DNA of 55,160 bases from an uncultured Methanosarcinales archaeon (lineage in GTDB: Archaea > Nanobdellota > Nanobdellia > Woesearchaeales > CAIVOO01): assembly GCA_964485195.1 (NCBI GenBank), contig CAZAIK010000008.1, positions 1 through 55,160 of the forward strand, written 5' to 3'. The notes under the pieces were generated by a model. That model saw nothing but the letters and a program-made list of their open reading frames with translations, was not told the origin of the DNA and did no database searches. The translations under genes and the position numbers were made by a program. Positions 1-55,160 of this stretch are shown piece by piece. The number at the start of each line of letters is the position of its first letter. The stretch's first letter is position 1.

Positions 1-25
1 CGCCTGGCGTATGGGTGACCATAAT

Positions 26-955
26 TTAATGTTTTTTCTTTTTTGTAGTCACCTGCTTTGTCATTTTCCTGTACTGTTTTATTAAGAATTTGACTGTCGG
101 TTTCAGATTGTGATTCTTTGAGTATTCCTGTAAGGTGTGGTAATATCCTGTTCTGTCATCAAGAAGTATGTTTATTGGCGGGTAATTGTTTCTTAATAAT
201 ATGAAAATCAGTAACAACCTGCCAACCCTGCCATTTCCGTCCTGGAATGGGTGTATGTGCTCAAACTGGTTGTGGATTATTGCTGCCAAAATCAGCGGCT
301 TGAATTTTTTCTTGTTCTTTTTGTACCATGAAATCATTTCATCCAGCGCAGGTTTTACCTGTGCTGAAGGAATTCCAGTATGCACAATTTCCCCTCTCCT
401 GTTCCTTATTGTAACTTCAACATTTCTTAATTGCCCTGCAAAGCTTTTTGTTCTGTTAAAGCATAGTCTATGCAATTTTTTAATAAGCTCAATAGACAAA
501 TCTTGCTTTGTTTTTCTTATAAAACCAACTGCTTTTGAAACATTTTTTGCTTCAACTTCTTCCTCATTCTCGGGGATTTTATTTTTTTCTATTATCTCCT
601 TCACTTCTTCAAGGTTTACTGTGGAGCCCTCTATCGCATTAGTGTTGTAAACAAATTCCTCTGTAAATCTCTCCCACTCTTTTTTGTCTAAATGATGTAT
701 CTTTATCTCATCGTCAAGTGAATTAAGGAGTTTAACCTGTTTTTTTGTGAGTGAAAAATTAAATATTTCCGTGCTTAACTCTTCTAATTCTTCTGCAATT
801 GCCTGTTTTGCTTCAATCTCTGCTTTTTTAAGCTCTTCAGGAGAAAGATTTAGCCCTAAATACCTTCTTATCTTTTTAACAACTCCTTTTTCCCTGTAAG
901 AATAGACAAGGTAATACTTTATGCCTTTACCGTACCTTCTTTTTTCTATGAACAT
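26..955 (-). CDS. Fic-domain protein with N-terminal extension
   Basis: Canonical Fic motif HPFQDGNGRVGR and the conserved YNTNAIEGS segment. Confidence 0.92.
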   Translation of the reverse strand: MFIEKRRYGKGIKYYLVYSYREKGVVKKIRRYLGLNLSPEELKKAEIEAKQAIAEELEELSTEIFNFSLTKKQVKLLNSLDDEIKIHHLDKKEWERFTEEFVYNTNAIEGSTVNLEEVKEIIEKNKIPENEEEVEAKNVSKAVGFIRKTKQDLSIELIKKLHRLCFNRTKSFAGQLRNVEVTIRNRRGEIVHTGIPSAQVKPALDEMISWYKKNKKKFKPLILAAIIHNQFEHIHPFQDGNGRVGRLLLIFILLRNNYPPINILLDDRTGYYHTLQEYSKNHNLKPTVKFLIKQYRKMTKQVTTKKKKH

Positions 956-965
956 ATGATATTAA

Positions 966-1006
966 AGGTGTCCACATTTATAAACATTTGTATTTTGTGG
1001 TCACCT
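966..1006. promoter_or_regulatory. Inverted repeat around the TATA box of the Fic gene
   Basis: aggtgtccaca (966-976) and tgtggtcacct (996-1006) are 10/11 complementary and flank tttataaa (977-984). Confidence 0.6.
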
Positions 1007-1123
1007 AGAAGTTTCCCGCCAAAAGATGCCAAAGCTGTCCAGTCGCCGCCTGGAATATTGGAAGATTCAGGCTCGATACGCCAAAAGAAAGGGAAACATT
1101 GGTTTTGCTTATAAAGAAAATAG

Positions 1124-1774
1124 TTATTTAAGGGAGTCTCTTAAACATTTGGATTTCAAGAAATTATTATCTAAAATGAAGAAGGGATGTCTTTTACGAA
1201 GATCATAAGAGTAACCTTTTACTGGTGCAGAACTACAAACCTTTATCTTGTTCTTCTTTATAAGATCCATAGCTGGGATGAAATCAGCATCTCCTGATAT
1301 TAAGGTACACACATCACATTTCTTATTGATTATTGTATGTGTAATCATATCAATAGCAATCATAACATCAATACCTTTTTCTTTGTTCTGAATTCTTCCC
1401 ATATAATTAGTCAGTGATGTTTTTGCTAATGGCATACACGTTTCGCAAAGTTCAGAGCCATCAAACTTTGTATGAATTTTCTTAAGGATTTCTTTAGTGG
1501 ACTGGCTCTGCAACTTTCTAGTTTTAACCTCAAAGAGAGGAGTTTTTTCAATTTTTTTCAAAAATTTTAAGTGGTTGAAATATTGCTCTTGCCCATCTCT
1601 TATGTTTGGGATTGAATTATAATAAACAACTTTTTTAGGGGTTGCTCCAAGGAATTCACAAACTTCCGTGACTAACTTTTTTAAATCAATATCTGAAGGG
1701 TTTAATCCATTGTCTTTTAGAAGATGATATAAGTTATTTCCATCTATAAATAGAATTGCATTTTCCTTTTGCAT
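1124..1774 (-). CDS. NYN (LabA/DUF88-like, PIN fold) ribonuclease
   Basis: FIDGNN, EKGIDVMIAIDM and LISGDADFIP motifs; start taken at the ATG of MQKENAILF. Confidence 0.9.
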   Translation of the reverse strand: MQKENAILFIDGNNLYHLLKDNGLNPSDIDLKKLVTEVCEFLGATPKKVVYYNSIPNIRDGQEQYFNHLKFLKKIEKTPLFEVKTRKLQSQSTKEILKKIHTKFDGSELCETCMPLAKTSLTNYMGRIQNKEKGIDVMIAIDMITHTIINKKCDVCTLISGDADFIPAMDLIKKNKIKVCSSAPVKGYSYDLRKRHPFFILDNNFLKSKCLRDSLK

Positions 1775-1971
1775 ACACCCCAACTTACTTTTATTTGATC
1801 CTATGAGATTATGATAACCCAGCATTCCCCCGCTCGTGGCAGGTTCATACTGGGGACTTAATCTAGTATATATATACAGACATATTTATAAAGATTTTGG
1901 TAATAATGCTAAAAATACTTTATTAACCAAATTTGATGTTTACAAAGCCCTAGGTCAAACTGAGGGGCATA

Positions 1972-4017
1972 TCAATACCTGAATCCTAACTCTTTTCTTG
2001 CGAAGATGTATGCTGCTGTTAATGAAACCATGTCGTGGGCGTTGTGCTCCAGCACGGAATCTATTGGGGTTTCCCCTTTCAGGTGGCTGTGGTAAATCCG
2101 CGGGACCTGCTTTCCCGGGAGGTCTTCCCTTTGGCATCCCAGCATCCTGTCTATCTGGCTGAGCTTTCCGTTTTTGAGCCCGAAACCCCTGGCTGCCTGC
2201 CTCATGCAGTCAGCATAGATATCAACGTGGTTTCTTATCTGAGGTCCTGGCATTATGTTTGCAATGCTTCTCCTGTTTAGCATGTGCGCGTCAAAGCTCC
2301 TGCCGTTGTAGGTTACCATCAGGCTGTTCTTTTTTACGAGTTCGTTTACGTGCAGCAGGAGCGCTGCTTCTTCCCAGGGGTTCCTTGCAAATCCTATTTC
2401 AACCTGAAAGATGTTTCCCTGCCTGTAGGCCACGCCTGCTGATATGATTGAGTCTTTCTTGCTTAGGCCAGTGGTTTCCAGGTCCAGGAACAGCATTGGT
2501 TTGGTGCCTATCCTTCTCGTGTTGTTCCTGACGTATTGTGCAGCTGCAGTGTCTATTTCATCAAGCCCCACTTTGAAAAGCTGGAATGCACCTTCCTCAT
2601 TCTTTTTCTCCCCTCCATTTTTTCCAAACAACCGGGCGTGGTTGCTTTTCATCTGCTCCCCGTCCGCAAGTTTTTGGTTGATGTCTTGCAGTGTTTGTAT
2701 TGCATAATCCATTTTTCCCTTCTGGCTCGGCTTTGATATGAGGTGGGGAGTGTAGGCAGCTGTCCTGAACATCTGCATTAACATCTCCTGGCTTACAGGA
2801 AGTTCCTGTCTTGCGTTTTCCAGCGCACTCTCCAGGCTTTCCTCAAATTCGCTGCTGAGGAATGTCTTGATTCTCTGGTTGCAGGATAATGCTTCTGCAA
2901 CTTCCCTGTCTCTGGGGCCCAGAAGCACTGCCACCCTGGAATCTATTTTTTTCGGCCCGGTTCCGTTCTTCCTGAAGTAAAGGTTTTTGCTGCTGCCAAT
3001 CTCCTGTTTGAGTTTTTCTATATCCTTTGCATTCAGGTTCTTGTAATTCTTGACCTCAACTGCGCAGGGCTCTGCAGAAAGAACCACAACGTCCGGAAGG
3101 AAAAACCCTTCCTCACCTTCCCTGTAAACCCTGCACCCTTTGGAGTTGTAAACCTCTGATATCGGCGCGGGGAAGGTTTCCCTGAACTTTCCTGTCTGGA
3201 ATTCCGCGTTTGGGTCTGTGCTGCCTGTCAGCAGCAGGAGGAACTTGGTCATCTGCTCGCTGAGCTCCCCTATGTTCCAGACTTTTTTCGGCTTTTTGCT
3301 AGCAGCCTTTTTCTGGCCTTTTTCCTGGCGATGTCCGCTGCCAATTTCCTCTCTCGGAATTCCTGTTAACATTGATACGACCTCACTTATTGAAGAGCCT
3401 GTATGATAAGTGTCAGGGTGCCTTGCGATGAATTCCAGTCGGGTGTGCAGGGTTGGGTTGCTTGCCTTTATTCCTGATTTTGAGATGTCTCCTCTTTCAA
3501 AATAGACTGCCTGCAATTCCCCCCTAATGCTTTCAAGGCTTATGTCCTGATGGAAAGTCCTCCTGGCCATCCTTTCGTAAAGATCCGGAACTTCAGGATA
3601 AACAGAGTTTGCAATCTCCCTGAGTGTTTTGTGTCCGTTTTTTCTCTGCCTGCTCAGCTGCGCAGAGTATTGCTTGGGGAACTTTCTGGCGAATTCTGTT
3701 ATGGTGGGCAGCTTTGTTTTCCCTTTTTTCGCCTCGATAACAAGCTCAAGGGGGTACGCCTGCCTGATGCATTCTTCAAGCTCCTCAACAGGCCTTGCGG
3801 CGCAGGCAGGCTGCCATCCTGCTGCTTCTGCAATGGCGGCCGCGCCTCCAAGCCCTTTCTCCTTGGCAATCCTGTACAATGAATTTTCAATGTCCCTGCT
3901 GCCCTTTTCCCTCAGGACGCGAAAATTTACCGGGAAGGCCTTGCAAAACCCTGCCTCTTTGAGAATTCTGTCTACTTCTTTCTTGCTTTCTTCATTTAAC
4001 GCGCACTTTATATCCAA
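1972..4017 (-). CDS. Multidomain nuclease: central PD-(D/E)XK-like motif plus C-terminal RNase_H_2/YprB-like DEDD exonuclease
   Basis: PDVVV...VEVK; FLDLETTGL, VTYNGRSFD, HNAHD. Confidence 0.75.
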   Translation of the reverse strand: MDIKCALNEESKKEVDRILKEAGFCKAFPVNFRVLREKGSRDIENSLYRIAKEKGLGGAAAIAEAAGWQPACAARPVEELEECIRQAYPLELVIEAKKGKTKLPTITEFARKFPKQYSAQLSRQRKNGHKTLREIANSVYPEVPDLYERMARRTFHQDISLESIRGELQAVYFERGDISKSGIKASNPTLHTRLEFIARHPDTYHTGSSISEVVSMLTGIPREEIGSGHRQEKGQKKAASKKPKKVWNIGELSEQMTKFLLLLTGSTDPNAEFQTGKFRETFPAPISEVYNSKGCRVYREGEEGFFLPDVVVLSAEPCAVEVKNYKNLNAKDIEKLKQEIGSSKNLYFRKNGTGPKKIDSRVAVLLGPRDREVAEALSCNQRIKTFLSSEFEESLESALENARQELPVSQEMLMQMFRTAAYTPHLISKPSQKGKMDYAIQTLQDINQKLADGEQMKSNHARLFGKNGGEKKNEEGAFQLFKVGLDEIDTAAAQYVRNNTRRIGTKPMLFLDLETTGLSKKDSIISAGVAYRQGNIFQVEIGFARNPWEEAALLLHVNELVKKNSLMVTYNGRSFDAHMLNRRSIANIMPGPQIRNHVDIYADCMRQAARGFGLKNGKLSQIDRMLGCQREDLPGKQVPRIYHSHLKGETPIDSVLEHNAHDMVSLTAAYIFARKELGFRY

Positions 4018-49351: not shown

Positions 49352-49618
49352 ATGCCGGAAAAATACTTCAAGTGCGACCCAGAGGAATATGAATGCAGGG
49401 GCAAGGAGGGTCTGGCGAGGCTTGAGGAGATTATCAATAAAGGGGAAAGGTTCCTGAACATAGGCCTTCTGAAAGACGCCATTGAGCCAATGCTTACATT
49501 CATATCCTCAGGCGCAATTGCTGAACAGGTCAGGGATGCTTTCAAGGCAGGCGAGAATGATTACAACAAGACATCAAGAAGGTACAAGGAGATAAGAGAA
49601 AGATTCAGTAGCTTTTAG
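49352..49618 (+). CDS. Hypothetical protein
   Basis: ATG ORF with tttataaa about 25 bp upstream. Confidence 0.6.
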   Translation: MPEKYFKCDPEEYECRGKEGLARLEEIINKGERFLNIGLLKDAIEPMLTFISSGAIAEQVRDAFKAGENDYNKTSRRYKEIRERFSSF

Positions 49619-51071
49619 CAATGTAAACAACTTCCTTTGCTTCCTTTCCGCAGACTGCGCACTTGCCCTCTGGCTTCTCTTCCTTGCCGAAACGTGTTCC
49701 TCTCACAGTGCCTCCTATGACCTTCTCAATCTTTTCAGCGCATTCTTCCCCGTCCTTGCCTGTTGAGCAGAAGCCGCACTTCACTATCTTGTTCTGGCCA
49801 AGGGCTTTTTTAATTTCATCGACTGTTTTTGCATCAGCAATGCTCTTCTCAAAATCCGACTCTGTCTTTTTCAGCAGATTATTTGTGAATTCTTTTTCTA
49901 TCTTCTGCACTTCCTTTAACAGGTCATTTTGTTTTATTTGCGTTTTCCTGCCCAAGTCCCTCCTGAAAATAGTGGCTGTGTTTTTCTCTAAATCCTTTGG
50001 CCCGATTTCTATCCTTATTGGAACGCCTTTCAGCTCCCACTCGTTGAACTTGTGCCCTGCAGAATAGTCATCCCTGTCATCAAGCTTTACAGAGTATCCC
50101 TTCAGCTTGCTCTCAATTTCCTTTCCCTTCTTCAAAACTTCCTTTTTTGATTCTTCAAAGATTATGGGGACTATCACGATGTGAAGAGGGGCGACATCCC
50201 ACGGGAGGACAAGCCCCTTGTTGTCGCTGTGCAGCGCAATCATTGCCCCGTAAATCCTGCTGTGGGCCGGGCCGTAGCAGGTGATGTGGGCGTGTTTCTC
50301 CTCGCCGTCCTCGTCGGTGAATGTAACATTGAAGGGCTTTGAGAACTTTTGCCCAAGCAAGTGAGTGGAAGGCAGTTGCAGGACCTTTCCGCTTCCCATC
50401 AATGCATCAGCTGCAAATGTCTTGTCCGCGCCTGGAAACTTGTCCCATTCAGGCCTCTGGAAAAAGATGTGCGGGATCGCGAATTTCCCGTGCAGAACCT
50501 CATGGGTTGTTTCCATGTCCTCCCTGACCTGCGCCTTTGCATCCTCTTCAGCTGCAAAAACATTGTGGGCCTCTATCCAGTAAATCTCCCTGGTCCTGAA
50601 AAAGGGCCTGGTCATCTTTGTCTCGTGCCTGTAAACAGTGCAGGACTGGTATCTTTTCATCGGCAGGTCCTTGTAGCTCCTTACCCACAATGAATACATT
50701 GAATAAAATGCAGTTTCTGAAGTGGGCCTCAATGCCATCTTTTCATCAAGCTTTTCGCCCTTCCCGTGCTCTGTAATCCAGAAAACCTCAGGGGTAAAGC
50801 CCTCAATATGCTCTGACTCTGTCTTCAGGAGAGCTTCTGGAATGACCACAGGGAATGTCAGCGGGAGATGCCCTTTTTTCTCAAGAGTTTCCTCCATAAT
50901 CCGGTTCATCTTTTTGAGTGAGATGGTGGACCATTCCCTGTAAACCGGAAAGCCCTTGAGCTTGTACCTCACATCTGCCAGCTCTGCCTTCTGAAGAAGC
51001 TGGGTGAACCACTCTGAGAAATCCTCCTCTTTTTTGGCTGTTATTCCCAAGTCACTCTCTTTTTCTGCCAT
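49605..51071 (-). CDS. proS: Proline-tRNA ligase, archaeal/eukaryotic type
   Basis: FSEWF, LRPTSET, YRHETK..PFFRTRE, WELKGVPIRIEIGP, C-terminal AKSY. Confidence 0.96.
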   Translation of the reverse strand: MAEKESDLGITAKKEEDFSEWFTQLLQKAELADVRYKLKGFPVYREWSTISLKKMNRIMEETLEKKGHLPLTFPVVIPEALLKTESEHIEGFTPEVFWITEHGKGEKLDEKMALRPTSETAFYSMYSLWVRSYKDLPMKRYQSCTVYRHETKMTRPFFRTREIYWIEAHNVFAAEEDAKAQVREDMETTHEVLHGKFAIPHIFFQRPEWDKFPGADKTFAADALMGSGKVLQLPSTHLLGQKFSKPFNVTFTDEDGEEKHAHITCYGPAHSRIYGAMIALHSDNKGLVLPWDVAPLHIVIVPIIFEESKKEVLKKGKEIESKLKGYSVKLDDRDDYSAGHKFNEWELKGVPIRIEIGPKDLEKNTATIFRRDLGRKTQIKQNDLLKEVQKIEKEFTNNLLKKTESDFEKSIADAKTVDEIKKALGQNKIVKCGFCSTGKDGEECAEKIEKVIGGTVRGTRFGKEEKPEGKCAVCGKEAKEVVYIAKSY

Positions 51072-51239
51072 CAGAACAGTTATTAAAAAGGGGTATTTAA
51101 AGGTTTTTAAAGAAGATAAGAATTTTGAGTTCAGAATTCGGGCATATCTAATATTAACTTCAGAGTGGTAAAAGAAACGAAAGATTTATAAAGGAAATGT
51201 ATTTACATTAATTAACAAAATATATGGGAGAAAATAAAA

Positions 51240-51866
51240 ATGCCAGAATATGAATGTATACATACATGGGGTCCAGGTGCAGGTTGCGATAATAAACCAA
51301 TAGGCTTACTTTGTTATGCTCCAAGAGGCGAAGCAATTCCAAGAGTAGACTTATCTTGTGAAAGATTCGCGAATTATCATGGTCATCATGGCGGAATTGC
51401 GGTTTTACTTGCGTGGGAATTAAAAGGAACAAATTATGAGCAAGTAAAAGCTGAATTGAAAGAGAATAGAGATTTGTTTAAAGAACAAATAGGCCGAAAA
51501 TTTGATGGAAATACACTTCCAAATTTTGTTTCTCAAAGGGAAACTATCGAAGAAGGTGTTATGAAAGCTTACGATGCACTTGTTCGAATAGCTGATTCAA
51601 AATCAAAATTAAGTAGTATGGAACAGGTACAGGAAAGAAAACTTGAGGGATTAGACCCTTAGAAGAGAGATTATTTAGAGATAATTATGCCTCTCTTCAG
51701 CGTGTGGACCCAAATCATCCGGCTATTCAAGCAGTGAGTGTTGGAGAAAAGGGTATTTTGCTTCAGCAAGCTTTTTTTTGATAAATATGGGGATGATCCA
51801 AAAGAATTCAAAGCGAATGTATGTGAATATTTTGTTGCTTTGAAAATTGCTAATGGTTCTTGGTAA
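51240..51866 (+). pseudogene. Hypothetical cassette gene, probably interrupted (ORF stops at 51662)
   Basis: Coding-like sequence continues to an in-frame TAA at 51864-51866 that abuts the cassette arm. Confidence 0.5.
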
Positions 51867-51886
51867 TCTTTGCCACCTGGATTGTG

Positions 51887-51907
51887 AACAACATCGCGCT
51901 GTTATGT
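51887..51907. repeat. Cassette junction hairpin 1
   Basis: aacaaca-tcgcgc-tgttatgt. Confidence 0.75.
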
Positions 51908-51992
51908 GAGGTTGACCGATAGGTTTTTAAAGTAGCCATTATTACTATAATTATACTTCTTCTGGATTGAAATTGGGTTTAAGAGGCTTAAA

Positions 51993-52646
51993 ATGCAAAA
52001 TATTAAAGCAATAATTTTTGATTTTGATGGTGTAATAAATAATGGAGTTGAAGTCCATTATGATTTTTATAGAGAACTCTGTAAATCGCATAATATAAAA
52101 CCGCCATTTTCAGATAAAAAAGAATTTAGAGATTGGTTTGACCCAAGGGATTATAAACCAAACTATCGAAATTTAGGAATTTCTTTGAAAGATCCGAAAA
52201 ATATTCAATACAAGGATTATATTAAACAAGTTGGTATTCCGCTTATAGGAGGAATAAAAGAAGTAATAGAAAAATTAAGCAAAAAATACATCCTTGCAAT
52301 TGTCTCCACAAACCATAAAGAGATTATAGAACACCAACTTGAAGATTATGGAATATTGAAATTCTTTAAACCAATAATAGGAAATGGCGACATTTTCAAA
52401 ATTAAACCTCACCCTGAAGCATTGCTGAAATGTTTGGAAGAACTGAAATTAAGCAATAAAGAAGTGATTTACATAGGCGACATGGTTAGCGATACAGAAA
52501 CATCAAGAAATGCAAACATCAAAATCATTTCAGTAACTTGGGGGTGGTCTTCAAAAGAAGAATTGAAGAAAGCTAAACCAGATTGGATAGTAGACAATCC
52601 AAAAGAATTACATAAAGTCATTGAAAGGAGCTCGGAGGCAAATTGA
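51993..52646 (+). CDS. HAD-family hydrolase (phosphoglycolate phosphatase-like)
   Basis: IFDFDGVI, IVST, KPHP, YIGDMVSD. Confidence 0.92.
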   Translation: MQNIKAIIFDFDGVINNGVEVHYDFYRELCKSHNIKPPFSDKKEFRDWFDPRDYKPNYRNLGISLKDPKNIQYKDYIKQVGIPLIGGIKEVIEKLSKKYILAIVSTNHKEIIEHQLEDYGILKFFKPIIGNGDIFKIKPHPEALLKCLEELKLSNKEVIYIGDMVSDTETSRNANIKIISVTWGWSSKEELKKAKPDWIVDNPKELHKVIERSSEAN

Positions 52647-52668
52647 ATATAACATGGCGCTGTTGTAT
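52647..52668. repeat. Cassette junction hairpin 2
   Basis: atataaca-tggcgc-tgttgtat. Confidence 0.8.
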
Positions 52669-52769
52669 GTTTTTTCCGCAGGAAAAAATCGCGGAGTGAA
52701 ACGGAGCGACAGTATGACGCAGGGCTTGCGTTAAGTTTATCAATGCGCAAAAATACCAATATGATAACT

Positions 52770-53291
52770 ATGAAAAAAAAGATAATATTTTTTGATGGTG
52801 ATGGAACGCTTTGGCATCCAAAGAAAACAAAATATGCAAAGCATCCAGTTTGGCTATACAAAGACAAACGATTCAAAAATCATACAAATCATCTTACTAT
52901 GACGCCATCAGCGCTAGCAACTATCAAGAAATTGGAAAAAGAGGGCATAATCACTGTGGTTCTTTCGACCCATCCTCATCCCCCAAAAGAAGCAGATGCA
53001 ATCATCAAACACAAAATAAAGCACTTTAAGTTAGAAGAACTGTTTGATGAAATTCACGCAACAAGAGAATATCACGGGTCGAAAGGAGAATTTGTGTTGA
53101 AGGTTCTCAAGAGAAGAAAAATACCCAAATCAAAAGCGCTGATGGTTGGAGACAGCTACAAGTGGTACTACCAATCAGCAAAAGGTGTAGGGGTGGATGC
53201 TTTGCTCATTGAATCAGAATATGAACCGATGAAACATAAGGTAAGGAAAACCATCAAAAAATTAAGTGATATTCTTGCGCACATCTCTTAG
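52770..53291 (+). CDS. HAD-family hydrolase
   Basis: FFDGDGTLW, VLST, SKG, MVGDS. Confidence 0.88.
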   Translation: MKKKIIFFDGDGTLWHPKKTKYAKHPVWLYKDKRFKNHTNHLTMTPSALATIKKLEKEGIITVVLSTHPHPPKEADAIIKHKIKHFKLEELFDEIHATREYHGSKGEFVLKVLKRRKIPKSKALMVGDSYKWYYQSAKGVGVDALLIESEYEPMKHKVRKTIKKLSDILAHIS

Positions 53292-53310
53292 CAAGCCCGA
53301 GTAATATTGC

Positions 53311-53344
53311 ACATAACATCGGAAGTTCCTGTTATGTCTCCCGA
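53311..53344. repeat. Cassette junction hairpin 3
   Basis: acataaca-tcggaagttcc-tgttatgt; 53314-53344 is identical to 54195-54225. Confidence 0.9.
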
Positions 53345-53516
53345 ACGAAACGAAGTGGGGTTCTGGCGACCTGCGTCCGCAAAGTTGAGAAAAAGACCAA
53401 TCAATACAGTTCGGAGAGCATTAAAGGAAAATAAGCTAAGGCGGGCCTAAAAATCGAAAGATTTATATAGAAGTTAATACATATTAGTTATTAATTAATA
53501 AAAATTATTGATTAAA

Positions 53517-53795
53517 ATGTCAGAAACAATACAAGAACAAAAGTTAGAACATTCTCCTACTTTGAATACCGTGCTAATGGTAGAAGAAACCCTTAAAAAT
53601 ATGGATGAGAGTGTCATAACTATTGCTGAACTTAAAAGAAGGCTTCCAAAGCAAGTTAACCATAATACATTGAGAGTAATACTTGAATATTTAGAAGAAA
53701 GCAATAAAATAGCAGTAAGTATGAAGGGTATTACTTGGATACATAATCCTAATTCGAATTTAAGAAAAGCTATTGCAAATGGGCTTGAATTATGA
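53517..53795 (+). CDS. Winged-helix protein, putative antitoxin
   Basis: PTLNTVLMVE, ELKRRLPKQV, ILEYLEESNKI; 4-bp overlap with the next gene. Confidence 0.7.
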   Translation: MSETIQEQKLEHSPTLNTVLMVEETLKNMDESVITIAELKRRLPKQVNHNTLRVILEYLEESNKIAVSMKGITWIHNPNSNLRKAIANGLEL

Positions 53796-54145
53796 AAACT
53801 GTAAGGGCAATCTTATCTCCAGAAGCAGAAGAGATATACAAATATTTGAATGAACAAGCGCCTACTTCAAAGAATGAGCGTATGATATTAAATTCAGTGA
53901 ATAAGAAAGTTGAATTGATCAAAGCAAATCCTCATTATGGCAAACCAATAGCAAAGAAATTAATACCTGATGAATACAAGAAGAAGTATGGTGCGACAAA
54001 TTTATTTTGGGTTGAACTTCCCAGTTTTTGGAGAATGTTATATACACTTACAGATGGAAATACCGAGATAGAGATAATTGCTTTTGTTCTTGATGTGATT
54101 GATCACGACACTTATAATAAAAAGTTTGGTTACAAGAAGAAATAA
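53792..54145 (+). CDS. RelE-like toxin
   Basis: IKANPHYG, LFWVELPSFWRMLYTL, DHDTYNKKFGY. Confidence 0.65.
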   Translation: MKTVRAILSPEAEEIYKYLNEQAPTSKNERMILNSVNKKVELIKANPHYGKPIAKKLIPDEYKKKYGATNLFWVELPSFWRMLYTLTDGNTEIEIIAFVLDVIDHDTYNKKFGYKKK

Positions 54146-54190
54146 TTTTTAGTCCCGCCTCTTCTATTTTTTAGGTCTTTTTCTCAATTA

Positions 54191-54225
54191 AAACTAACAT
54201 CGGAAGTTCCTGTTATGTCTCCCGA
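54191..54225. repeat. Cassette junction hairpin 4
   Basis: aaactaaca-tcggaagttcc-tgttatgt. Confidence 0.9.
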
Positions 54226-54386
54226 GCCGATAGGCGAGAGCGCAGCGTGGTCGACCGAAGGGAGAGTTTTTGAGAATGCCGTCTATCAAAAGAGCGATGC
54301 GATATCCTCAAAAAGTGAAACTTTTTGGGACACCAGAAATCTTTGATTTCTTAGTGCATCAAGAACAAGGATAGAAGGGCTGGCTT

Positions 54387-55013
54387 TTATTCAATTATTT
54401 TATTTTGTATTAAGAACTTTTTAATAATCTCATACATGATTTTATATCCTTCAGCATTAGGATGGACACCATCAACTAATAATTTAGGATAATTTTCTTG
54501 CTTTGTAAATTCTGAGTAGATATCACAAAACAGTAAACTATTTTCTTCAGCAATTTTTTGTAGTATGTCATTGAATTGCTCAATAGTTTTATTACTAAAA
54601 TAAGTGTTTTCAAAAGGCATTAAAGATTCATCAACAGGAGGCAATCCAATAAGAATAACCTCTTTAGTTTGATTCTTAGCAATATCAACCATTTCACAAA
54701 CGTTATTTTCATAATCTTTTGGGTTTATTTGTATATTATCTGGGCTTCCTAAGCCACGAGAATCATTGGTTCCAATAGCAATAAGAATTACAAATTTATT
54801 ATCCGGAAAATAATATTTAATTCTTGATTCCGCTTCTATTTCGAATCTCTTCAATAAATCTGTTGATGAGTCTCCAGGTATTCCTAAATTATACAGAACA
54901 TTGTAAAAATCTTTTGATTCAAAGTATTCTTTCAATCTATTTGCCCATCCTGTGCTTGGCACAACACCTCTGCCAAATGTGATGCTATCTCCAAATGCCA
55001 GTATTCCATACAT
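54387..55013 (-). CDS. SGNH/GDSL hydrolase
   Basis: FGDSIT, NLGIPG, IGTND, DGVHPN. Confidence 0.93.
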   Translation of the reverse strand: MYGILAFGDSITFGRGVVPSTGWANRLKEYFESKDFYNVLYNLGIPGDSSTDLLKRFEIEAESRIKYYFPDNKFVILIAIGTNDSRGLGSPDNIQINPKDYENNVCEMVDIAKNQTKEVILIGLPPVDESLMPFENTYFSNKTIEQFNDILQKIAEENSLLFCDIYSEFTKQENYPKLLVDGVHPNAEGYKIMYEIIKKFLIQNKIIE

Positions 55014-55096
55014 GATATAAAAGAGAAAGAAATATGTATTTAAAAGTTCTTCTAAAAGTCCAGCCCTCTTCTACTATCTAGGCATTTTCAAAAGTT

Positions 55097-55125
55097 GAAA
55101 CTAACATCTGCAGCCTGTTAGTTTC
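55097..55125. repeat. Cassette junction hairpin 5
   Basis: gaaactaaca-tctgcagcc-tgttagtttc, perfect 10-bp inverted repeat. Confidence 0.88.
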
Positions 55126-55160
55126 CCTCGATAGAGGTTGGATTTTAGTGCAACGTTCCC

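Follow-up and report, generated by a model that had tools for sequence, protein, structure and literature searches.

Complementary flanking arms around the cargo genes of an integron-like cassette array in a woesearchaeal archaeon

The right end of a 55,160-nt contig from an uncultured archaeon of the Woesearchaeales (CAZAIK010000008.1 of assembly GCA_964485195.1; the whole contig is called the window here) holds a tandem series of small genes separated by short junction sites. We read this series as an integron-like array in which each gene is the cargo of a conserved frame, the frame being the two halves of a clamp that would close around a core hairpin and an adjoining module, with a XerA-like tyrosine recombinase as the likely enzyme; our probability for this reading is about 0.55. 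Its fold in single-stranded DNA, the role of its clamp and catalysis by the XerA-like enzyme are what we infer from sequence. The window is contig C8 of a 1.13-Mb genome (G000) that is 99.5% complete, and its G+C content is 0.33-0.35 from 51.1 kb to the contig end, against 0.43 for the whole contig. An earlier note on this DNA had proposed that each gene lies in the loop of its own long-range inverted arms, an 'inside-out' attC site, in units reading TGTT...AACA. We located five cores of the form AACA-N6-11-TGTT (J0 to J4, Table 1), and each unit does read CTGTT...gene...AACAT.

Inverted arms were found in three of the five window cassettes, namely those that carry a toxin-antitoxin-like (TA) gene pair, the second of two HAD-family hydrolase genes (HAD2) and an SGNH/GDSL hydrolase gene (SGNH). 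All the pairs claimed for these three are present in the sequence (Table 1); the HAD2 arms have a perfect core of 8/8 within a longer pairing that is imperfect, and three stop codons (53289-53291, 54143-54145 and, on the minus strand, 54387-54389) touch or overlap an arm. In a shuffled control of the kind proposed with the claim, we shuffled both flanks 300 times (mononucleotide shuffles) and scored the DNA duplex energy of own left with own right flank; pairing beats chance for TA (-28.7 kcal/mol vs -10.2 ± 2.1; 0/300 as good), HAD2 (-14.6 vs -7.8 ± 1.7; 1/300) and SGNH (-16.8 vs -11.0 ± 2.4; 9/300). It does not for the first cassette (-17.8 vs -13.1 ± 2.8; 17/300) or for the other HAD cassette, HAD1 (-5.2 vs -5.2 ± 1.1; 138/300), and the weaker pair put forward for the first cassette (51161-51175 / 51867-51879) matches at 7/13 ungapped, with flanks at chance. 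The TA and SGNH flanks are homologous (49 nt at 73%); hence, these two cassettes are not independent examples.

To find relatives of the array, we ran a pattern search across its order (301 genomes) and obtained recurrent cores such as TAACATCGGAAATTCCTGTTAGTT, often near contig ends. The loose order-wide pattern matched 40 of the 301 genomes, with similar counts in controls, and only palindromic matches of the TC type described below were pursued. On the contigs inspected, arrays of the same anatomy are present in four genomes (G129, G155, G042 and G099). A contig scan with TAACATC-N3-10-CTGTTAGTT was too loose, its 120 rows being mostly chance matches in bacteria; the module signature occurred at only four of its loci (L062, L117, L129 and L146), and the scan was uninformative on taxonomic range.

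We set the flanks of 17 cassettes against each other in an all-versus-all duplex test and found that the own pair is the best in both its row and its column for 12 of them; own duplexes have energies of -16 to -33 kcal/mol, and non-own pairs have a mean of about -12. A position-specific test, on 25 cassettes from G000 and five related genomes, took the 14 nt that end at the A of the ATTG box upstream of the downstream core and looked for their ungapped complement in the left flanks. The own left flank gave at least 12/14 in 16 of the 25 cassettes (14/14 in seven) and was the best of all 25 flanks in 19, whereas non-own comparisons averaged 8.5 and reached at least 12/14 in 11 of 600, some of these 11 being homologous frames. 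The six failures were HAD1 and HAD2 of the window (the latter at rank 2, with a bulged helix), G155_C51:6041, G155_C66, G155_C96 (rank 2) and G155_C58. Arm A, wherever it pairs well, opens with the T of a conserved RAG|T at 45-71 nt past the core; its partner (A') lies about 9 nt from the downstream core, and a nested second helix (arm B) follows 40-90 nt further inward. Arm sequences are almost all different; hence, complementarity is maintained and not inherited as a single repeat. The claim that arms differ yet stay complementary, proposed together with a check in other genomes, is strongly supported by these own-versus-non-own tests. Mismatches in helix A numbered 10 of the G.T type and 13 of the A.C type (360 positions, 18 cassettes), and this absence of a G.T excess would fit DNA rather than RNA folding. 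Judged by these comparisons, arm pairing is general and maintained across a family of archaeal cassettes.

Core statistics were taken from 37 cores flanked by the module signature and an ATTG or ATTA box, a set that includes eight mis-registered rows, which count against the result. The spacer from AACA to TGTT measures 6-14 nt. The two bases after AACA are TC in 25 of the 37 cores, and TC also occurs in seven of the eight mis-registered rows. With this bulge removed, the spacers close 65 Watson-Crick pairs in total, compared to 20.8 ± 5.2 in 1000 shuffles (maximum 37); with the bulge left in place, the full spacer closes no pair in 34 of the 37. The junction sites of the window are 24-33 nt long, with inner stems of 2-5 bp, and their outer boxes, ACATAAC...GTTATGT, compare to ACATAAC...GTTATGG in a published Nanoarchaeota attC, which with these R''/R' boxes is 59 nt long and has long L boxes (PMC9668308 data S9). 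The core accordingly has the appearance of a miniature, bulged, attC-like hairpin. Some cores keep AACA-TC...TGTT with inner stems of 8-11 bp and loops of about 25-90 nt (L185:456-568, L187:953-1033 and, on the minus strand, L188, where the long core is 337-380 counted on the reverse complement); these long-loop cores resemble the variable terminal structure of long attCs.

A 155-nt empty frame of G129 occurs in two contexts at 100% identity. The identical stretch opens 3 nt ahead of the left CTGTTA and closes with the right one, and the same upstream cassette in this genome is followed by two different module types. In addition, contigs from two other runs of the same study leave identity with the window inside cores, at 53319, 54206 and 55114. 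Hence, the 155-nt duplicate and the run contigs locate the exchange of strands within the core's CTGTTA half rather than at the arms, so the arms are not an attC turned inside out; they are, in our reading, the outer clamp of a larger frame that is split by integration. A crossover at the RAGT boundary, with the module belonging to the upstream cassette, was rejected, since the duplicate is bounded by CTGTTA instead and since one left cassette is joined to two module types. Also rejected was the canonical attC register with R'' at the core and R' at AAAGT|T (80 nt in J2), which gives R-box matches of just 4/7, no conservation as GTT for the base that follows AGT, and inner pairing that is inconsistent among cassettes. 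The 31 nt at 53314-53344 are identical to 54195-54225, and this perfect repeat around the TA cassette, which holds cores J2 and J3, is what integration at such a site would leave.

Contigs from other samples (runs X1-X3) join a different cassette end to the SGNH left flank (54206) and different left contexts to the module after 55114, which suggests that cassette order varies in the community. Two joints that skip window sequence, 52724>53298 (with a shorter side of 20 nt) and 53324>55114 (seen in a run with almost no window sequence), are most simply explained by other cassettes whose conserved parts match in part.

A conserved module lies to the right of every core and is of several types, all ending in RAGT: type I has a P1 hairpin and then a P2 stem that encloses the invariant TAGTGCAACG and a P3 hairpin, type II has P1 and GCGTCCGCAAAGT, and type III has GAGCGCAGCG or CAGTATGACGCAGG. 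RNAalifold on 13 aligned type I modules recovered the core hairpin, P2 and P3, with compensatory double changes in 11 of 18 predicted pairs. Two G129 cassettes have left flanks that are 78% identical over about 150 nt and right flanks that are 83% identical over about 100 nt, with unrelated genes between them, and cargo-free frames of 151 nt and 289 nt occur in the same genome; others adjoin integrase genes. Hence, shared flanks with unrelated genes and empty frames show the gene as payload in a conserved structured frame. Mini-hairpin motifs (GCGAAGC, CGAAG and CGATAG) are abundant in modules and right flanks (53334-53385 and 54215-54267 in the window; many other loci); d(GCGAAGC) is a DNA hairpin of unusual stability.

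Read from left to right, a cassette begins with CTGTTA, the right half of a junction hairpin, followed by a module of two or three covarying hairpins that runs to RAGT, by arm A, a linker and arm B. The cargo comes next, in either orientation and with a putative promoter-like element of its own, and then arm B', arm A', an ATTGnnnnT box and AACA-TC-palindrome, the last being the left half of the next junction hairpin. In this hairpin, boxes like R'' and R' are joined by a 2-nt bulge, which is conserved, and a loop, which is variable; strand exchange is placed in its CTGTTA half. In the mechanism that we propose, excision at CTGTTA and circularisation would make the right half-frame abut the left half-frame, and on the circle A/A' and B/B' would close a fold of about 200 nt around junction hairpin and module. 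Integration at a hairpin would open the fold, and its halves would then bracket the gene. The fold could serve integration of the circle, or bring flanking hairpins together for excision, or both, and the enzyme would likely be a divergent XerA-like tyrosine recombinase without the IntI-specific domain.

We folded permuted (circle) and array junctions with DNA parameters and found means of -33.3 kcal/mol (n = 14) and -20.1 kcal/mol (n = 8), respectively. The circle junction is the lower one in seven of eight paired cases, the exception being the TA/SGNH junction of the window, where the frames are homologous. An ordinary integron cassette has at its start a TTRRRY that is complementary to its own R''; this is the same split topology on a scale of 6 nt, compared to two helices of 13-16 bp here.

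A further-reaching version, which we put forward tentatively and with less than even confidence, sees a cassette-capture system of DPANN archaea that is separate from classical integrons, with a XerA-derived integrase and a fold deliberately split by integration. The complete clamp of the circle would then integrate readily, and the integrated halves, 0.6-0.9 kb apart, would be locked until the cassette becomes single-stranded. Since the same frame occurs with unrelated cargo and also empty, cargo may be taken up through the loop of an empty frame, and this would make one route of cassette genesis visible.

G000 has one tyrosine recombinase gene (C13:3-908, minus strand, 301 aa). Its product scores 230 bits on the archaeal XerA model, above the cut-off of 220, and 225 bits on the integron-integrase model, below the cut-off of 265. 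The best solved relative is VchIntIA (2A3V), with an alignment in two stretches that skips residues ~194-239; hence, the G000 enzyme is without the IntI-specific domain. Array-linked integrases of three relatives behave in the same way with these models, array-linked enzymes scoring 207-230 bits on the XerA model and a second paralogue in the same genomes 266-277. Clustering the integrases by similarity to the G000 enzyme was uninformative, all being 35-41% identical.

The XerA-like gene of G099, G042 and G129 is directly preceded by cores and empty frames and followed by convergent chromosomal genes. We counted by hand, in a table of XerA-model matches (150 matches listed, 151 genomes of the order; three rows of two unpublished genomes left out), the plus-strand genes that start at most 2.5 kb from a contig start. 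Among the matches listed, these are 36 of 113 below 245 bits and 3 of 34 at 245 bits or more. From 20 of these 36 contig starts, three earlier loci and contig C7 of G000 we assembled 24 upstream regions and found the motif (ATTGnnnnT)AACnnn-TnTTAARCG in 16, mostly 135-330 nt ahead of the matched domain. Shuffles gave 1.3 (maximum 4) and the reverse strand 4, and one or two of the 16 look like chance.

The array of the window resumes at the start of C7 with a core, a type III module and an HD-domain cassette with arms TCAGGTTTCGCTC / GAGCGAAACCTGA, read as 13/13; past the box of this cassette come a divergent terminal site and then a reversed 76-nt copy of the integrase 3' end. The 76-nt repeat (C7:752-827 and C13:1-76; 75/76 identical) comprises the 23 final codons of the integrase gene with its stop, and the C13 copy ends the intact gene at a contig break; this suggests that the integrase locus was rearranged or includes a segment that can invert or vary. 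Many array-linked integrase genes (L247, L249, L250, L252, L253, L255 and L258) are closely preceded by tandem CACTGGACA / CACTGGTCA repeats and then GTGCG(T/G)GTGA, which could be an operator or promoter element. Between array end and integrase, L188:2419-2886 (G129:C81) holds a 156-aa frame that is weakly similar to an integrase segment (43% identity over 35 aa), and this frame may be an integrase remnant.

Several points weigh against the reading we favour. Arms are absent in two of the five window cassettes and in 6 of 25 overall, and mismatch types give no signal on which strand folds. The crossover position rests on one exact duplicate and on contig breakpoints, and no excised circle, empty site or inverted form was seen in the assembled contigs. 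The stem of the junction hairpin (~10-13 bp) is short for two recombinase monomers, and a XerA-type enzyme without the IntI domain would have to recognise a bulged hairpin. Finally, the G000 integrase is not beside the array in the expected orientation, where only its 76-nt 3' fragment lies.

The arms could also act where they stand, as the earlier note had it: they would pair across about 0.6-0.9 kb of cargo in single-stranded chromosomal DNA, and the stem would drive excision or inversion. The pairing in question is the one seen in the shuffles and in the own-versus-non-own tests, so it speaks for both models, which use the same helices and are compatible. Cargo occurs in both orientations within similarly oriented frames, and, with A' about 9 nt from the downstream core and A one module from the upstream core, such a stem would bring the two cores side by side. 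Against this stand the breakpoints, which are at cores and not at arms, the need for a whole cassette to be single-stranded for pairing over ~700 nt, and the lack of inverted or excised variants in the assembled contigs. We therefore regard this model as unlikely. What survives of it is that maintained arms point to structure-based recombination; for inversion the only evidence is the either-way orientation of cargo.

Complementarity might instead be a functionless and decaying by-product of cassette making, left when cargo entered a hairpin loop. In its favour, the first cassette and HAD1, which are furthest from the C7 end (the integrase side), have lost pairing and the cassette at the C7 end has 13/13; empty frames could be the acceptors. 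We think this improbable nonetheless, because arm sequences are nearly all different yet pair perfectly or near-perfectly in most cassettes, because the arms adjoin conserved anchors in the manner of a covarying helix, and because the neighbouring module helices covary likewise.

There is also a small chance that the frames are non-autonomous foldback elements of the miniature inverted-repeat transposable element (MITE) kind, with TGTTA...TAACA as terminal inverted repeats, passenger genes and a transposase supplied in trans. As in MITEs, the units are short, non-coding and internally complementary over long range, and they occur in multiple copies: empty frames of about 150-290 nt are present in several identical copies and contexts in one genome, and the same frame is found with different cargo. 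MITEs are dispersed and have terminal inverted repeats and target-site duplications, whereas all units here are tandem, head-to-tail and share a junction hairpin, and BLAST of the window junctions and flanks found none elsewhere in G000 except the C7 continuation. The arrays carry genes, and a conserved site beside the gene of a tyrosine recombinase marks their end. Arm placement is subterminal and asymmetric, at 45-71 nt from one end and ~9 nt from the opposite end. Y1 (PF01797) or serine recombinases had no matches in the 99.5%-complete genome.

It is very improbable that the pairing acts in RNA, as a processing stem around each gene in a read-through transcript. The likeness is to archaeal rRNA precursors, in which long-range processing stems flank the gene. 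RNA pairing would sit poorly with the lack of a G.T excess over A.C (10 vs 13), with a TATA-like element inside the arms that would put the left arm outside the mRNA, and with frame orientation being independent of cargo orientation. A scan of six loci gave no Rfam matches at E<=1, and the mini-hairpins of GCGAAGC type that are frequent in the modules are stable as DNA. A meeting of A-rich left and T-rich right flanks by chance, as the composition of several cassettes might invite, is refuted, since composition-keeping shuffles fail to reproduce the pairing and non-own flanks of the same composition do not pair.

Table 1. Features of the array end of the window.
Feature	Position	Strand	Description
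Prolyl-tRNA synthetase gene (proS)	49605-51071	minus	low-G+C array stretch begins directly after
First cassette cargo			140-aa gene of no known family
Junction core J0	51890-51903	+	AACA-TCGCGC-TGTT; reduced module after it, ending AAAGT at ~51933
HAD1 cassette	51904-52650	+	passed over by the earlier note
HAD1 cargo	51993-52646	+	HAD-family hydrolase; arm pairing undetectable in cassette
Junction core J1	52651-52664	+	AACA-TGGCGC-TGTT; box ATTGAATAT just before
HAD2 left half-frame	52665-52729	+	module with small hairpin and conserved CAGTATGACGCAGG, then variable arm GGGCTTGC (52722-52729; 8/8 with 53291-53298)
HAD2 cargo	52743-53291	+	second HAD-family hydrolase
HAD2 right half-frame	53291-53314	+	arm GCAAGCCC (53291-53298) and conserved box GAGTAATATTGCACAT
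Junction core J2	53315-53333	+	AACA-TC-GGAAgTTCC-TGTT
TA cassette module	53334-53385	+	P1 hairpin and conserved GCGTCCGCAAAGT
TA arm A	53385-53398	+	14/14 with 54174-54187
TA arm B	53439-53454	+	15/16 with 54145-54160; TATA-like element after it (putative promoter)
TA cargo	53508-54145	+	two overlapping genes: small winged-helix-like protein; weak ParE-like toxin match
TA right half-frame	54145-54195	+	arm B' (54145-54160), linker, arm A' (54174-54187), box TTAAAACT
Junction core J3	54196-54214	+	identical to J2
SGNH left half-frame	54215-54389	+	module with GAGCGCAGCGTGG, arm A (54268-54280; 12/13 with 55081-55093), long linker, arm B (54372-54389; gapped pair with 55053-55073)
SGNH cargo	54387-55013	minus	SGNH/GDSL hydrolase, on the strand opposite to its frame
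SGNH right half-frame	55053-55102	+	arm B' (55053-55073), arm A' (55081-55093), box GTTGAAACT
Junction core J4	55103-55119	+	AACA-TCTGCAGCC-TGTT
Start of next cassette	55120-55160	+	type I module (P1 hairpin, TAGTGCAACG), cut by contig end

Cargo in the window lies on both strands, that is, in either orientation within the frames (Table 1). The ParE-like match of the TA cassette (PF05016) scores 22.2 bits, below the cut-off of 23. The 140-aa gene of the first cassette is followed by about 200 nt (51663-51866) that contain a 42-aa open frame at 51738-51866; this ends at the arm proposed by the earlier note and could be a decayed gene tail. A AAACGAAAGATTTATA-like element is common to 53449-53470 and 51172-51193, ahead of two cassette genes, and matches several other intergenic regions of G000; it is probably the local promoter consensus (B recognition element and TATA box). 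The first 2 kb of the window (1-2000) also have a low G+C content, 0.34-0.35, and a pattern search found no junction cores there. Synteny of proS in four family members (38-67% identity) gave no information on an ancestral empty site; in the closest, G246 (67%), the one region inspected has a tRNA-like sequence upstream of proS and no array.

Integrons are the textbook platform of gene capture and are defined by IntI and attC. Here, integron logic would be at work with an enzyme of the Xer type, with hairpin sites in miniature and with a long-range clamp in addition, which bears on the origin of integrons from Xer-like recombinases and on the ways in which structure-specific DNA sites can be built. 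Interchangeable cargo in conserved frames and empty frames bear on how genes become cassettes, and cargo entry into empty frames would, if true, be a route of cassette genesis, an open question for integrons. Judging by the size of the sites, standard integron finders probably miss this cassette pool in ultra-small archaea.

A full-text literature search found no description of the frame architecture, nor did a search by terms of a review of archaeal tyrosine recombinases. For archaeal integrons and clusters of attC sites lacking an integrase (CALINs) we compared with Ghaly et al. 2022 (PMC9668308); three motif words are absent from the searched part of its supplement, which lists attC-bearing Woesearchaeales genomes, so there may be overlap with the CALINs of that study. 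The Y1 HUH transposase (PF01797) that, with subterminal hairpins, marks the IS200/IS605 family has no match in G000, and the fixed 6-bp spacer of Xer/dif elements such as integrative mobile elements exploiting Xer and pdif modules compares to spacers of 6-14 nt in the 37 cores.

The pdif sites of Acinetobacter plasmids are 28 bp long (11-6-11), double-stranded and alternating in orientation. Like them, the sites described here bound small cargo modules and would be used by a Xer recombinase of the housekeeping type; in contrast, they are directly oriented, and their spacers (6 to >100 nt) fold into bulged hairpins. XerCD also integrates the folded single-stranded DNA of CTX phage at dif. The likeness is in a Xer-type enzyme acting on a hairpin from single-stranded DNA and in a single strand exchange that replication would resolve; variable central regions such as those seen here would be tolerated in this way. 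CTX differs in being one phage genome at one site, with no cassette array and no bracketing frame.

By the usual criteria, IntI is a tyrosine recombinase with an additional domain near patch III, and attC sites are imperfect hairpins of ~57-141 nt with R''-L''...L'-R' boxes and extrahelical bases. In the array described here, R''/R'-like boxes and a conserved 2-nt bulge are present in sites of the small size given above, while the recombinase is XerA-like and without the IntI domain. The site length of 24-33 nt in the window contrasts with 58-97 nt in nine archaeal attCs (PMC9668308 data S9). Two further differences lie in the module and the two long-range helices of each cassette, which a whole gene separates on integration, and in cassettes that have their own putative promoters and either orientation, unlike the promoterless, co-oriented cassettes of integrons, for which one common promoter drives expression. 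In the relatives, the array is followed downstream by the integrase gene, whose transcription runs away from the array. In these relatives an array does stand beside an integrase and a primary (attI-like) site, whereas G000 has only the terminal site and the 76-nt fragment of the integrase 3' end.

What the array has in common with integrons is broader: tandem arrays of short, mostly single-gene cassettes (here including the toxin-antitoxin-like pair and hydrolases), hairpin sites with AAC...GTT boxes that are conserved in structure and variable in sequence, a crossover apparently in the half that contains GTT, a tyrosine recombinase gene and a conserved terminal site at one array end, and a cassette start complementary to its own far end. 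By these features, the array appears to be one that works like an integron with an enzyme that falls outside the defining IntI test.

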